From IMG/VR virus record IMGVR_UViG_2718217716_000005: a DNA stretch of 37,433 nucleotides; one strand, given 5' to 3'. Below, piece after piece: positions 14,232-20,718 of the stretch (its first letter is position 1; each line of letters starts with the position of its first letter). Made by a program: the position numbers and the translations under genes. Below the pieces are notes generated by a model that was given only the letters and a program-made list of their open reading frames with translations, was not told where the DNA came from and made no database searches. The DNA is from a virus. Its lineage: Duplodnaviria > Heunggongvirae > Uroviricota > Caudoviricetes.

Positions 14232-15713
14232 TCACAAAATGAAACGGATCTGCGCGGCCATGAAGCGGAACTGGTTAACCAGATCCGGTGTACACATCAC
14301 ATCCAGACGGTTACGGTCTTTTGTGTTGCGCTCCACGAGCAGATTCTTTTTAAAGGTGTCCAGATTTTCGACCAGTCCCAGATCCACCCATTCTTCCCCC
14401 AGCGCAATCAGCTGGAGCGTCATGATCTCCGGCGTCACGATATTCTGACCGGGCCGGACGGGAGTACCGTTATCGGCCAGTTTGTGGCGCGGGAAACGCT
14501 GCGTGATAAAGGTGCGCAGGGAATAACGCAGATATGACAGGGTGTAGATGGTTTCCACATCCAGATAGCTGGGATCGCTTTCGCCGTATGCATTCTGACG
14601 GTACATCGTCACCTGACGTTCAATCTGCACCACATCAGCGGCCGCGACGGTCACCGTGGACATGCCGGTATAAAGCAGGCTGTTTCGCTCTTCCCGTGTC
14701 AGGCGATCTGATTCTGCCGGTGCCAGTCGAGCAGGCAACGCCAGCGTCTGGAGTGGGCGGGCAGGATCGGCAGACAGTGACGGTGCACAGACTGCACAAA
14801 TAGAAGCTGCCCAGACATAATCCGGCTCTGGTGCCTTCGGAATGGAGGTACAGGTAAACAGGAAATCATTACGGGACTCACCAAAACTGGTTGCCGTGCC
14901 GAAGGTGCCGGTATGCGCCATCCAGACCATACCGTCTGACATTTTTACCGGTCCCCAGCGTTTCAGCAGTTCTTCCGCCAGAATTTTGAGATTCGCCGCA
15001 TCCTTATAGGGCATCACAATATAGTTATACTGGCGCGTCCCCATGGCAGCGATGCTGTTGGTAATATCCGGGTTTTTCGGCGCGGTGCCTCCGGCAGTGG
15101 AAACAACAATCCCGGCGGGTGTCACTTCACCGGAATAATAATTCAGCCGGATATCATGCACGGAGCATTCGCCGGTAAATTTTGCCGTCAGGGTGATCAC
15201 TTTTTTTGTCTGATCCTGATTATCCGGGGGGACGCTGGTCGTGGCGCTGACCGGACAGTCCTGGTCTGCGTTAATCATCGCGGCAAGCGCATCCGCCAGA
15301 AGATTACCCGGTTTGCCTTTGCTGACGGCCAGACGGTAAGGACGTCCGGCGATATAGAGATTCAGCACATTGTCTTCCGTTGCTGTACCGGAAAGCGTGA
15401 TGGTGCCGGATGTGGCCGTGCCGGTGCCTTCCCCCTGTGCAATGCCGTACAGCTCCGTATCAGGGTTAATGGCAATAAACGCTGCCACCATCTGCGCAAT
15501 CATGGAGCCACGCCCCCAGAGTTCTGTCGCCTGAGACGCGCGGGTGATACGGACAGGAGAATCAACAACACCAAACGCATTACGGTTTCGCTGACCAAAC
15601 AATAGCACCGCCTGACGCTGCGGCGGCGTGCCGGTCACGGCCATTGAGTTATTGATTTCAATCTGTACCAGCGGGATGCGATTGTTATCGCCGATAAAAT
15701 CAAAGTTAATCAT
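14232..15713 (-). CDS. Contractile tail sheath protein (Mu L-like)
   Basis: 493-aa ORF, size and position as Mu L. Confidence 0.8.
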   Translation of the reverse strand: MINFDFIGDNNRIPLVQIEINNSMAVTGTPPQRQAVLLFGQRNRNAFGVVDSPVRITRASQATELWGRGSMIAQMVAAFIAINPDTELYGIAQGEGTGTATSGTITLSGTATEDNVLNLYIAGRPYRLAVSKGKPGNLLADALAAMINADQDCPVSATTSVPPDNQDQTKKVITLTAKFTGECSVHDIRLNYYSGEVTPAGIVVSTAGGTAPKNPDITNSIAAMGTRQYNYIVMPYKDAANLKILAEELLKRWGPVKMSDGMVWMAHTGTFGTATSFGESRNDFLFTCTSIPKAPEPDYVWAASICAVCAPSLSADPARPLQTLALPARLAPAESDRLTREERNSLLYTGMSTVTVAAADVVQIERQVTMYRQNAYGESDPSYLDVETIYTLSYLRYSLRTFITQRFPRHKLADNGTPVRPGQNIVTPEIMTLQLIALGEEWVDLGLVENLDTFKKNLLVERNTKDRNRLDVMCTPDLVNQFRFMAAQIRFIL

Positions 15714-15988
15714 CAGGACGTCCCCTTATCTGATGCTGCGGGTTTTTCAGCCGCCGCAGGTTTTTCTGCTGCCGCTCCCGCTGGTTTTGCAGCCTCGCCG
15801 GTATTACCTGTTGTGGCTGCCGGGGCAGGCTCCGCCGTTTTATCCACCACAATGACGTCGCCATCATTAAGACGGCGGCACCAGAACGGAGTGAAGGGTT
15901 TCTCTTCCCCGTCCTGTGAGAGCGGATTCATCGTGTCGGGATCGCGGATCAGGCATCCCGGCGCAGGTTTAATAAAAATGGTTTTCAC
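15713..15988 (-). CDS. Small tail-region protein (Mu gp38-like) with Ala/Lys/Pro-rich C-terminus
   Basis: 91-aa ORF whose stop overlaps the sheath start. Confidence 0.55.
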   Translation of the reverse strand: MKTIFIKPAPGCLIRDPDTMNPLSQDGEEKPFTPFWCRRLNDGDVIVVDKTAEPAPAATTGNTGEAAKPAGAAAEKPAAAEKPAASDKGTS

Positions 15989-16063: not shown

Positions 16064-16330
16064 ATGTCATCAGAAAATCAACCATCACCAGAGATTCAGT
16101 TCGCTCATGACCTTGTAAATGGGTTAGCTATTGCGGTGAATATTCTGATCCAGAAACTGGAACAGGACGGAACACTGTCCATGAATGAATTTCTGGACAA
16201 ACTTCGTCAGCAACACACTGGTTTACTCGCACAGAACCAGAAAACTATCGCTCATGGCGTCAACCTGCTTTTGGGATCGCTTGAGTATGTGACGACCACG
16301 AAGAGCGACCAGACAAATCAAGCTCACTAA
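16064..16330 (+). CDS. Hypothetical helical protein (88 aa), opposite-strand insertion inside the tail cluster
   Basis: ATG at 16064 preceded by TAAGGAG at 5-nt spacing. Lower GC than flanking genes. Followed by its own stem-loop. Confidence 0.55.
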   Translation: MSSENQPSPEIQFAHDLVNGLAIAVNILIQKLEQDGTLSMNEFLDKLRQQHTGLLAQNQKTIAHGVNLLLGSLEYVTTTKSDQTNQAH

Positions 16331-16447: not shown

Positions 16448-17005
16448 TCAGACCTCTTCGTTGGGATTCATGTTTTCACCTGTACCCTTAAGATGAATAT
16501 GTGCCTCAAACGGCGACGTACCGGGCGGCTCCACAAAGGTTTCGTAATGGCGCAGGAAATCATCCAGCGAGCTGATATCCGTCAGCGGGTCGATCATTTC
16601 CTCGCATGAGAAATACAGGGCGTACATCACGGCACCGCTGTCTGCCTGCGTTTCGGTGTAACCGTTAAGCGCCTTTTCAAAGTAAAGCGGTGAGGTTTTT
16701 TCTGTCCTGAAACCGTCCAGCACGGTAATCAGGCGGGCCACAATCTGATAAAGTCCGGGACGGCTGACCTCACGGCCATTGAGCATGTCGCCGATGACGT
16801 AGAACACCCAGTGGCTGACCAGACGTCCACGGGTACGCCCTTCACCGGCACCCAGCCAGGCAACGTAGATCGCCGGGGCGCTAATCAGCATGGTGCGCAG
16901 CACACTGTCGCTCCAGTCGCCGGGATGCGTGTCAACTGACACCAGTTCATTCCCGAAATACTCACGGATACGGGCGATGTACGCCTGTTCGGTTTCCGTA
17001 ATCAT
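16448..17005 (-). CDS. Tail completion/neck protein (Mu K position)
   Basis: 185-aa ORF in conserved order. Confidence 0.55.
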   Translation of the reverse strand: MITETEQAYIARIREYFGNELVSVDTHPGDWSDSVLRTMLISAPAIYVAWLGAGEGRTRGRLVSHWVFYVIGDMLNGREVSRPGLYQIVARLITVLDGFRTEKTSPLYFEKALNGYTETQADSGAVMYALYFSCEEMIDPLTDISSLDDFLRHYETFVEPPGTSPFEAHIHLKGTGENMNPNEEV

Positions 17006-17421
17006 ATAAAGCCCTTCTGGTTGCGCCCGAACACCGCCGCATCAGACTGTACCTGCGGTAAGTCCCCGGATTCAGGGGCCGCACCGTCGGTATCCACGCC
17101 GACCGGCACGTTGCCGTTCATGACGTCTTTCAGCCAGGCCAGCGCCTCACGATAACGGTCACGCGCCTGTTCAGCTCCCCGTTGATCGCACAGGTAATAA
17201 AAGGCAATCGCGCAGCAGTGCTGAACAAGGACCGCCGGAACCACCGCCAGCGGCAGCGTGTAACGGGCAGACAGGTAGCTGTCGATAAGGGCAGACGCGT
17301 CCGTCAGCGCCCGGTTCAGTTTGCGCGTGTCCGGTTCATCCGAACGGGGCACGGCCAGTAATGACCTGAGCAAATCCTCGCGGTAACGCGCCCGCATATC
17401 GGTTTCGGTGGCGTAATTCAT
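17002..17421 (-). CDS. Head-tail joining protein (Mu J position)
   Basis: 139-aa ORF overlapping both neighbours. Confidence 0.55.
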   Translation of the reverse strand: MNYATETDMRARYREDLLRSLLAVPRSDEPDTRKLNRALTDASALIDSYLSARYTLPLAVVPAVLVQHCCAIAFYYLCDQRGAEQARDRYREALAWLKDVMNGNVPVGVDTDGAAPESGDLPQVQSDAAVFGRNQKGFI

Positions 17422-17831
17422 GCGCGCGCCTTTTTTTTCTGTCTGGCTTTATTGCCGGTCTTTTTCCGGGGAGCATCCTGTCCGGCTTCGGCTTCGGCTT
17501 CGGCTTCGGCTTCGGCTTCGGCTTCGGCTTCGGCTTCGGCTTCGGCTTCGGCTAAATCTGCACCGGTCGCTGCATGAACCACACCCGCCACGGCTCCCGC
17601 ATCATCACCAGGCGTCTGTAGTATTCGTACAGTGAGGCATGGCTCCGCTTCCAGTCGGGCAAGCTGTTCCGGGGTGACGTCAACCTGCTGGCGTCCCCGC
17701 ATGAACAGGAACCCCGCACGACGAAACTGCGCACGATTGCAACGCACTTCTGCCAGTACCGTGACAGGATTGTCACCACTGACCTGAAGGCCTGAGTCAT
17801 CTGTTGCTGCCACAGTGTGATGTTCATTCAT
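17418..17831 (-). CDS. Hypothetical head-region protein with internal (Glu-Ala)n repeat and basic C-terminal tail
   Basis: 137-aa ORF between the major head gene and the J-like gene. Contains AEAEAEAEAEAEAEAEAEAEAEA and ends KKTGNKARQKKKARA. Confidence 0.55.
   Translation of the reverse strand: MNEHHTVAATDDSGLQVSGDNPVTVLAEVRCNRAQFRRAGFLFMRGRQQVDVTPEQLARLEAEPCLTVRILQTPGDDAGAVAGVVHAATGADLAEAEAEAEAEAEAEAEAEAEAEAGQDAPRKKTGNKARQKKKARA
17484..17552. repeat. Perfect hexanucleotide tandem repeat (GGCTTC)x11.5, in-frame, coding (Glu-Ala)n on the minus strand
   Basis: Seen directly as ggcttc repeated without interruption for 69 nt. Confidence 0.95.
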
Positions 17832-17874: not shown

Positions 17875-18822
17875 TTACAGATAATCCGCGACAACCAGCT
17901 CCAGCTTGCCCTTCATCTCGTTAGAGACGGTGGTGTTACCGTCCGCGAACAGCTCGCGCTCCAGCAGCTGCACCGCCTGTTTTTCCAGCGAGGTGGGGAC
18001 AACAATATGGGTGGGTTTGATACCGAGTTTGCGGCCACCGTCAGCCTTAAAGTCACGCATGGCTGACCAGCCGTGCCACAACGCATCCAGCGTCAGCGGT
18101 GACTGCATCATGTAGGCCATCTGCCAGAAGCCGTAGCCCACATTGCGACGGGCGGAAGCACCGAACACAAACTCGTTATCAGTAAACGCACGGCCTTCAT
18201 CGACTTTTGTCTGGGCAACCAGTTCGGCCTTGCGGCGATCCTGGTAAATCAGCGGTTTTACCGCGCGGGAGCAGTCAAGCAGATACCAGGCCGGGCCGCT
18301 GTAATCCGCCTGTGCACCGACAGAGCCGGTTTTTGCCACAAACATATTGCTGACCATCTGTGCATCACCGGAGCCATCCACTTTGGGGTAAACAGGGTGT
18401 TCGATATCAAAGAAGTTCTGGCCGTCATAGCAGGCCGCATTCAGACCATCACGCAGTGCAGCAAAGACCAGTTCATCCGGTTGTGCCGCCGCAGCGCGCC
18501 CCATCTCCTGGAACAACGGGGAGTAGATGCCAAGATTGTCGTCTTCAAAGTCATCGCGGCTAATGGCAACGGTGCCTTCAAAGGTTTTGTTCACGATGGC
18601 GTAGCCATAGGCTTTCATCTTCTCGATGACGCGGGAGCCGATCCACTCACGGAACTGCGGGAACTGCCCCAGCCAGCCGTAGGTGTTGGATTTCGACGTG
18701 GACGGTACGGTCATCGCAATTTTCTGGTACTGCGACGGAGCCATGGACATCCCGGCCTGAAAATCAGAACGGTAGCCCGTCATCAGGGCGGTGATCATCG
18801 CCGGTGTAATCGGGGTAGGCAT
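17875..18822 (-). CDS. Major head (capsid) protein (Mu T-like)
   Basis: 315-aa ORF immediately downstream of the protease/scaffold gene; followed by a GC-rich hairpin at 17840-17865. Confidence 0.8.
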   Translation of the reverse strand: MPTPITPAMITALMTGYRSDFQAGMSMAPSQYQKIAMTVPSTSKSNTYGWLGQFPQFREWIGSRVIEKMKAYGYAIVNKTFEGTVAISRDDFEDDNLGIYSPLFQEMGRAAAAQPDELVFAALRDGLNAACYDGQNFFDIEHPVYPKVDGSGDAQMVSNMFVAKTGSVGAQADYSGPAWYLLDCSRAVKPLIYQDRRKAELVAQTKVDEGRAFTDNEFVFGASARRNVGYGFWQMAYMMQSPLTLDALWHGWSAMRDFKADGGRKLGIKPTHIVVPTSLEKQAVQLLERELFADGNTTVSNEMKGKLELVVADYL

Positions 18823-19946
18823 TATTGCATTTCCTCTTTCATTTTCAGGAACTCGGCTTCGGTTTTACCCAGCAGATGGGCGGCGGCGATATCTTCAGCC
18901 GACAGCACAGCGGTGGCGGTCTTTTTATCCGGCACGGTCACGGTGTCGGTCTGAAGAGTGGTCAGAGCCGCAACCGGCTGGCGGGCGTCAAGCTGTGCAG
19001 AAAGTGCCGCAACACCAATCTGTTGTCCGAGTCCTTCCATGTATCCGCGTTCGCTTTTGAAAATGCGTCCTTCGGACTCGGCCTTATCCAGCAACTGCTC
19101 CAGCGTGGTGCTGCCGTGTTGTGCCGACAACGCGACATATTCGGTACGCAGGGCGTTATACGTCTCAACGGGCACGTATTTCGTCAGATCAATAGTGCCG
19201 CCAGTTGGTGTGCCTTTTGCGGTTTCCAGCTCTGCCGACAGGCTGGCAACCTGTGTTTTCAGGGTGTCGTGCGCATCCGCACGGGTTTTGATCCCGGTAA
19301 GGGCAGACAGCGCCGCCGTGCCCAGTTCCGGCGTAAATTCGTCACCGTCAGCCACGGTCAGACCGAGCGCCGTCAGCAACTGGCGTAATTGCTCATTCAT
19401 GGAGGTGTCCTTTAAAGGAGGGTTTAAGGCGTTATAAAGGTCATCCGCCGACAGTGCGGCGACAGGATTCATGCCAGTCAGACCGGGGTCACCGGTAATA
19501 GCCAGCATCCGGAGCTCAACAGGTTCACCGGTGATTTCGTCATAACTAATCACCGGGGAAAACCAGGGAAATTCGTTATTGCGCAGGTGTTCAATGGCCG
19601 GAGGGTTCCAGTCCGGACGCACTTCAAAACCACGCTCTTCACTGAAACGGAAGTTCTCCGGCGAGGCCATGACAAAACCGGCAGCCGGTGCCGCATGCCC
19701 CTCAATCAGGGTCTGGTGGTTGTAGTCAATCTTCACCGGCTGATTGAGCGCCACAACCCGGGATACCATGCGCCCAACGGTCGCACGGTTAATCAGCCAG
19801 CCTTCAGCCGGTTTTTCCGGGCGACCGTCACGGGCCTTTACCCGACCGGCTGGCATGATCTGACACCAGTCACCGTCCCCGTCTGCGGACAGGCTGATGG
19901 CATTCAGAATGGCATAAGCAAGTTTGGGCGTGTTTTTCGTCTTCAT
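18822..19946 (-). CDS. Head maturation protease / scaffold (Mu I-like)
   Basis: 374-aa ORF; ATG overlaps the downstream capsid gene start. Confidence 0.75.
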   Translation of the reverse strand: MKTKNTPKLAYAILNAISLSADGDGDWCQIMPAGRVKARDGRPEKPAEGWLINRATVGRMVSRVVALNQPVKIDYNHQTLIEGHAAPAAGFVMASPENFRFSEERGFEVRPDWNPPAIEHLRNNEFPWFSPVISYDEITGEPVELRMLAITGDPGLTGMNPVAALSADDLYNALNPPLKDTSMNEQLRQLLTALGLTVADGDEFTPELGTAALSALTGIKTRADAHDTLKTQVASLSAELETAKGTPTGGTIDLTKYVPVETYNALRTEYVALSAQHGSTTLEQLLDKAESEGRIFKSERGYMEGLGQQIGVAALSAQLDARQPVAALTTLQTDTVTVPDKKTATAVLSAEDIAAAHLLGKTEAEFLKMKEEMQ

Positions 19947-20597: not shown

Positions 20598-20718
20598 ATT
20601 GCCTCCGCATAAAGGATGAATATAAAATAAACAGGCGGTCAGTGTACGCTTAACTGGTAAAGTCGGTGCCTGCCTCCGGGTGGATCATGTATGCGGGTTC
20701 GACCCCCGCCACTGACCG

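Follow-up and report, generated by a model that had tools for sequence, protein, structure and literature searches.

A hexanucleotide repeat, GGCTTC, in a late gene of a Mu-like Escherichia coli prophage turns over by whole units at a far higher rate than that of point mutation. O157-type prophages that match one another in every other base carry between 5 and 20 units, which makes the tract a clean natural case of a phage structural-module gene harbouring a coding microsatellite whose mutation far outpaces that of its surroundings. The window, by which we mean the whole stretch of 37,433 nucleotides analysed here, is a complete Mu-like (Sp18-type) E. coli prophage, and the repeat lies in it between the genes for the major capsid protein and a head-tail adaptor homologue. 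We consider it likely that the variation is a slippage-driven, largely tolerated polymorphism in the length and charge of a head-accessory protein encoded in the late operon of the prophage.

Repeat tract and its copy number in related prophages

TRF reported one array of period 6 at 17483-17553, with 11.8 copies, 100% matches and 0 indels. A direct scan divided the tract into pure (GGCTTC)x11 at 17484-17549 followed by GGC at 17550-17552, 69 bp in total, and gave the perfect period-6 run as 71 bp (17483-17553). An earlier reading made from the letters of the window without database searches (hereafter the sequence-only reading) had described a perfect 69-bp GGCTTC repeat, and the direct scan recovered the same span, in agreement with TRF. 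Among perfect runs of at least 3 copies and at least 12 bp with periods of 1-12, it was the sole one in the 37.4-kb window, where ~5e-35 such runs would be expected by chance given the base composition. Translation of the ORF at 17418-17831 placed GQDAPRKKTGNKARQKKKARA downstream of the Ala-(Glu-Ala)11 stretch encoded by the tract. The Glu-Ala tract foreseen by the sequence-only reading is thus present, but the count of about 12 given there has to be lowered to 11. ORFs on the plus strand over the tract would encode (Arg-Leu)n and (Ala-Ser)n; these were treated as by-products of the repeat and not taken as genes.

The gene region was found in 228 of 5426 complete E. coli genomes, with differing match lengths. 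Units were counted directly from the sequence at 17 E. coli loci, which yielded 1, 5, 6, 8, 10, 11, 12, 13, 14, 16, 17, 18 and 20 units (Table 1), so that the variation in repeat number between isolates anticipated by the sequence-only reading is real. That reading had proposed comparing repeat number across related prophages, and two comparisons of this kind were decisive. In the first, seven prophages carrying 5, 8, 11, 13, 14, 18 and 20 units showed 0 differences in ~3573 bp of flanking sequence; the proteins encoded by the neighbouring genes share WP accessions among the seven, and the accession of the HI1506-related protein differs in each. In the second, strains 121 and 139, which were both isolated from cattle and share the insertion site of the prophage, showed 0 differences in 40,573 bp, a span that takes in the entire prophage plus host sequence next to it, other than 13 units in the former versus 14 in the latter. 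The match length of strain 121 recurs in strains 137 and 140, and that of strain 139 recurs in strain 133.

Table 1. Units of the hexanucleotide repeat in named E. coli strains
Strain	Units	Remark
Strain 109, AF39	1	
SCU-171	6	
Sakai (Sp18)	8	
STEC299, CI5	10	
ECP19-2498, the window itself	11	
380-94	12	
Strain 121	13	
Strain 139	14	
FORC_028	16	
NCCP 13963	17	two units are GACTTC
F7508	18	
F1 E4	20	

For the 88 complete-genome records listed, the lengths imply 17 size classes, of which the smallest has 1 unit and the largest 20; these classes are derived from match lengths via a rule calibrated on the sequenced loci and are not sequence counts. The length differences were all multiples of 3 save one, which was a 1-bp intergenic indel beside an intact 127-aa gene. 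The gene was annotated as intact in every fetched locus and all alleles were in frame, as expected from the proposal of the sequence-only reading that an in-frame unit tunes length and does not turn the gene on and off. On/off phase variation was rejected on the same grounds, the 6-bp unit keeping every allele in frame.

All sequenced tracts but one consisted of pure GGCTTC. A large protein collection contained further alleles with 0-5 EA units, as well as amplified single-base variants of the unit, encoding Gly-Ala, Glu-Val, Glu-Ser and Glu-Lys. One-unit alleles are common, and the prophages that carry them are otherwise intact. The purity of the tract and the amplified unit variants are as predicted by recent and ongoing whole-unit slippage. 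As the units are pure, the steps are whole units and the flanks are identical, we infer that slipped-strand mispairing during replication would be the process that adds and removes units.

The tract is a recurrent source of broken contigs and of protein records labelled 'partial' in short-read assemblies. The partial protein P0116, whose sequence is found on 156 contigs, stops two residues ahead of the tract, and the IMG/VR contig L006 stops within a tract of at least 14 units. As short-read assemblies break in the tract, long alleles are probably under-represented in databases derived from them.

Other irregularities were seen in the same gene. A T8 homopolymer (A8 on the coding strand) is located at 17431-17438, within the codons of the Lys-rich tail, and in the database variants P0057 and P0058 the tail is frameshifted and continues into the beginning of the gp36 gene; these frameshifts could be sequencing errors or could mark a second slippery site. 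In the putative allele P0070 (E. coli, 1 contig; corresponding to window positions ~17484-17600), a frameshift upstream causes the tract to be read as (Lys-Pro)3, and the frame is regained ahead of the basic tail.

The repeat gene, its surroundings and its product

The coordinates of the gene, the parts of its product and the neighbouring genes are listed in Table 2. The sequence-only reading had placed the repeat gene between a capsid gene and a J-like gene, and the flanking genes were identified here as those of the Mu gpT and gp36 families. The order of gpT-like capsid gene, repeat gene and gp36-like gene, all on the minus strand, is the same in Mu. The roles given for gp36 and gp37 are those in the Mu cryo-EM paper (PMC11915804).

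Table 2. Features of the repeat gene and its neighbours in the window
Feature	Position	Strand	Remarks
137-aa Mu gp35 / HI1506-related gene	17418..17831, stop included	-	TGA overlaps next ATG (ATGA)
Folded N-domain, Pfam FluMu_N, residues ~23-72	17616..17765	-	Pfam, AF2, Foldseek, hhalign
Non-repetitive, predicted disordered linker, residues 73-93, TPGDDAGAVAGVVHAATGADL	17553..17615	-	pLDDT 63, then ~40
Hexanucleotide VNTR	17484..17552	-	coding strand GCC(GAAGCC)11; Ala-(Glu-Ala)11, residues 94-116
Basic C-terminal tail GQDAPRKKTGNKARQKKKARA	17421..17483	-	9 Lys/Arg in 21 residues; predicted disordered
Major capsid protein, Mu gpT family, upstream neighbour	17875..18822	-	53% identical to JBD30 gp38
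Mu gp36 (J) head-tail adaptor homologue, downstream neighbour	17002..17421	-	ATG overlaps preceding TGA
Mu I protease/scaffold gene	18822..19946	-	
gp37 terminator gene	16448..17005	-	
DUF2635 (Mu gp38-like) gene	15713..15988	-	beyond the gp37 gene
Tail sheath gene		-	follows the DUF2635 gene

E. coli strains M1 and M3 showed 100% identity to the window across the query region. In the annotation of M3, mom/com mark one end of the prophage and the transposase/repressor region the other, and PGAP names the repeat gene 'HI1506-related protein' in this identical sequence; the Sakai copy of the gene is annotated as 'DNA processing protein'. Just beyond the left end of the window, M3 has a truncated flgL adjoining the prophage (L024 2290-2583; 'incomplete; missing N-terminus'), which suggests that the M3 prophage is inserted into a flagellar gene. 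In O157 strains, the Sp18-type prophage adjoins a fimbrial operon instead. In some complete E. coli genomes, such as that of OkiPb01696, the prophage region is present 2-4 times, and a plasmid bears one of the copies.

Several observations concern other parts of the window. The DUF2635 gene encodes a low-complexity tail rich in Ala, Pro, Lys and Glu (AAKPAGAAAEKPAAAEKPAASDK), in which TRF detected an 18-bp repeat with 1.9 copies at 15741-15775; its CDS ranges from 231 to 288 nt across relatives, and it thus provides a second length-variable low-complexity tail in the late operon. Between the DUF2635 and gp37-like genes, an ORF of 88 aa lies on the plus strand (16064-16330), for which the M3 annotation gives a hypothetical protein. 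The O157 Sp18-type prophages, in which the DUF2635 and gp37-like genes abut, lack this ORF, and it may be an inserted moron. At ~20638-20717 on the plus strand, between the G-like and F-like head genes, PGAP annotated 'tRNA-OTHER' in the identical M3 sequence; ARAGORN detected no tRNA or tmRNA anywhere in the window.

The N-terminal part of the product matched Pfam FluMu_N (PF17891) over residues 36-72 with 36.2 bits against a gathering cut-off of 25.8 bits (E=4.7e-9). The protein also matched phrog_3622, a family of unknown function (E=1e-72), and HI1506 in PDB entry 2OUT (E=2e-4 by sequence and E=4.9e-13 by family profile), and the fold of its N-domain matched 2OUT with a Foldseek probability of 1.0. 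Identity to Mu gp35 (Mup35) was 46% over 41 residues, in the N-domain only. In the alignment, the usual layout of the family comprises FluMu_N, a linker rich in Ala, Pro, Asp and Glu, and a helical C-domain of ~50 residues that opens with 'DLNxRIR'. The E. coli Sp18-type proteins match their nearest two-domain relatives through 'DL' and then diverge; the three-helix C-domain is absent from the window protein, and (EA)n with the basic tail is found in its place. P0085 and P0094 are likewise devoid of the C-domain and have a charged low-complexity end with a basic tip. As its membership relies on the N-domain only and the C-domain is absent, the window protein is an architectural variant of the Mu gp35 / HI1506 family.

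An exhaustive HMMER search with the N-domain gave 17 representatives, which make the architectures visible and are too few for statistics. The use of the Edwardsiella homologue P0083 as a query added almost nothing new, and scans of one genome per species gave no relatives among the matches listed. Three large proteins of 666-814 aa (P0091, P0095 and P0100) contain 6-8 tandem copies of the FluMu_N motif (…YRRAG…), and P0099 contains two; thus, this small domain also serves as a repeat module elsewhere.

In the AlphaFold2 (AF2) model, generated from a 15-sequence alignment, residues ~23-72 were predicted with pLDDT 87-94 as a beta-hairpin, a helix and a third strand. Residues 80-137, which include the whole tract and the tail, had pLDDT ~40 and no predicted secondary structure. 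As the model has no structure over the tract, the repeat would encode part of a disordered extension and not part of a fold. The sequence-only reading had described the repeat as a linker ahead of a basic tail, and this is right in substance, since the tract lies in predicted disorder that leads from the folded N-domain to a Lys/Arg-rich tail.

With each unit, the protein becomes two residues longer and gains one negative charge. Its calculated pI is 9.2 for n=1, 5.0 for n=11 (the window) and 4.55 for n=20; from n=1 to n=20, the net charge at pH 7 moves from ~+3 to -16, and that of the C-terminal region from +7 to -12. With one negative charge per unit, charge is altered at least as much as length. 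This effect on charge, together with the relation of the folded domain to capsid decoration (see below), was overlooked in the sequence-only reading.

Possible roles of the repeat protein

A search of PDB sequences with the family profile matched 8rkc_B (8RKC/8RQE) with E=2.4e-4 (hmmsearch). This protein, gp39 of phage JBD30 (113 aa), aligned with the family profile in hhalign with a probability of 92.9% and E=3.7e-7, residues 27-75 of the window protein corresponding to residues 57-108 of gp39. The score of gp39 against Pfam FluMu_N is below the cut-off (22.5 versus 25.8 bits), and 8RKC was not among the matches in fold searches with the window protein. The genes for JBD30 gp37-gp41 are arranged in the order Mu-like protease, gpT capsid protein, gp39, an extra small gp40 and gp36-like adaptor, with the same Pfam families as in the window, and the capsid proteins of the two phages are 53% identical. 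In our own reading of the alignments, the gp39 contact residue Asp96 aligns with Glu63 and is the sole one with a conserved counterpart, Glu91, Ser95 and Lys100 aligning with Ala58, Ala62 and Thr67, respectively; on the capsid side, the contact residue Lys197 is conserved and Lys66 aligns with Glu67.

On mature capsids, JBD30 gp39 sits as trimers at the threefold and quasi-threefold axes; ~5/12 of virions carry it, and procapsids lack it (PMC11445458, EMBO J 2024). It adopts a Soc-like beta-tadpole fold, with disorder in the first 52 residues, and is thought to be a dispensable stabiliser (PMC11445458). In Mu, cryo-EM revealed no cement or decoration proteins on the capsid, and gp35, which was unresolved, was suggested to be maybe connector-related (PMC11915804). 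In view of these results on Mu, capsid decoration is a candidate role in the enterobacterial branch of the family.

The best-supported reading is that the window protein would be a capsid accessory (decoration) protein with a free, disordered and charged extension. The protein has three parts: the folded FluMu_N domain, a predicted disordered linker continuing into the acidic (Glu-Ala)n tract, and the Lys/Arg-rich tail. Judging from the homology to JBD30 gp39 and the synteny, the folded domain may dock in trimeric form at the threefold axes of mature capsids, and the disordered (EA)n stretch with its basic tail would hang free from the capsid, standing in for the three-helix C-domain of gp35 in Mu, FluMu and Edwardsiella. 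The length of the tract may be largely tolerated because the tract is disordered. Taken together, the common one-unit alleles, the broad range of sizes and the predicted disorder point to a largely tolerated polymorphism that is probably near-neutral.

The same repeat might instead be an adaptive dial, that is, a contingency locus acting by charge, whose mutability is itself selected. If the protein decorates the capsid, at up to ~420 sites (T=7, our own count), the number of units would shift the surface charge of the virion and how far the basic tail reaches. Virion stability or adhesion could be tuned in this way, as could the recognition of the virion by antibodies or host defences. The tract is pure over 1-20 units, many alleles occur in near-clonal O157 backgrounds, the calculated pI spans the full range given above, and the homologue in JBD30 decorates the capsid surface and has an extension that is charged and disordered, all of which would suit a dial. 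Neutral slippage, however, likewise gives purity and many alleles; moreover, allele sizes are widely spread and none is obviously preferred, the frequency of one-unit alleles indicates that the tract is dispensable, and Mu capsids show no decoration (PMC11915804), so we regard selected mutability as improbable. A further explanation, which we hold to be unlikely but less so, is that the protein is a nucleic-acid-binding bridging or assembly factor, or is connector-related, and does not decorate the capsid. The basic tail would then bind DNA, with (EA)n setting its distance to the folded domain or auto-inhibiting it. In an NMR study, HI1506 reportedly has two domains, both bearing positive patches, with a linker of ~30 residues between them, and its depositors are said to have proposed a nucleic-acid-binding role. 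The N-domain of the window protein is itself basic (pI ~10.2 for residues 23-72), as is the tail with its nine Lys/Arg residues, and the annotation of the Sakai copy would fit. A connector-related role would agree with the failure to see gp35 on Mu capsids and with the suggestion made there (PMC11915804). Against this explanation, no DNA-binding family was matched by sequence or fold searches, the only family member whose position in the virion was located experimentally, JBD30 gp39, is on the capsid exterior, and the positional analogue lambda FI has no similarity to the window protein.

Two other explanations concern the repeat itself and not the role of its product. The differences in copy number might be artefacts of assembly or sequencing, or products of recombination between prophages. 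Short-read assemblies do often break in the gene, as P0116 and L006 illustrate, and the 2-4 prophage copies in some genomes would allow exchange; complete genomes, however, always differ by whole 6-bp units, sister isolates share alleles (121 with 137 and 140; 139 with 133), and the flanks are identical across 3.6-40 kb, so that no recombination tract is visible. We therefore consider this very improbable. That the tract works as a DNA or RNA element, for example by binding a protein or adopting a structure, with the Glu-Ala coding being incidental, is hardly credible: nothing specific speaks for it beyond the position of the tract near the middle of the prophage, like that of the strong gyrase site of Mu, and the tract is always in frame in a conserved ORF. 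A role as a gyrase site in particular was rejected, as the Mu site lies elsewhere, between genes G and I, and single-unit alleles are common in otherwise intact prophages. The tolerated polymorphism of a head-accessory protein thus remains the reading that we prefer.

The finding connects the Mu gp35 / HI1506 family, which had long been uncharacterised, with JBD30 gp39, a capsid decoration protein observed by cryo-EM, and the natural alleles form a ready series (n=1 to 20, pI 9.2 to 4.55) for probing the role of the disordered extension. The tract is also a potential high-resolution marker for STEC lineages with Sp18-type prophages. If the dial were true and the protein decorated the capsid, the virion surface would gain or lose negative charges by the hundreds with every slippage step, and the prophage population would hold a standing range of virion surface properties such as stability, adhesion, and host or immune recognition. 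In-frame VNTR slippage in a disordered segment is in itself already well known. Literature searches, in a coverage from which subscription journals are mostly absent, found no account of the locus under hexamer/VNTR/O157, ECs4975 or Sp18, and nothing relevant on HI1506 or Mup35.

Comparison with known systems

Mu gp35 and FluMu gp35 (HI1506) resemble the window protein in having an N-terminal alpha/beta domain followed by a flexible linker. The proteins of Mu, FluMu and Edwardsiella continue after '...DL' with a helical C-domain of ~50 residues, whereas the window protein continues with (Glu-Ala)n and a Lys/Arg tail, and Mu gp35 has no tandem repeat. JBD30 gp39 is, like the window protein, small, has a charged disordered extension and is encoded beside a homologous capsid gene. 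The extension is N-terminal and non-repetitive in JBD30 gp39, whereas it is C-terminal and contains the VNTR in the window protein; in addition, capsid binding has been shown for JBD30 gp39 only.

Lambda FI is a DNA-packaging chaperone. The gene for its product gpFI has the same position as the repeat gene, and gpFI has an architecture of two domains plus a linker, without sequence similarity to the window protein. A packaging chaperone of the gpFI type was rejected, the hhalign probability being 0.5%, and the likeness is a loose analogy only.

The coding VNTRs used in MLVA typing of E. coli O157:H7 and other bacteria show the same whole-unit differences in copy number in near-clonal isolates, presumably also from replication slippage. 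As the prophage region occurs in 228 of 5426 complete genomes, the present locus would give null alleles in a typing scheme. The tetranucleotide and homopolymer contingency loci of Haemophilus and Neisseria likewise have a hypermutable simple-sequence repeat within a gene. Unlike in these loci, the 6-bp unit of the prophage gene keeps the reading frame, so that the length and charge of the product change and the gene is not switched.
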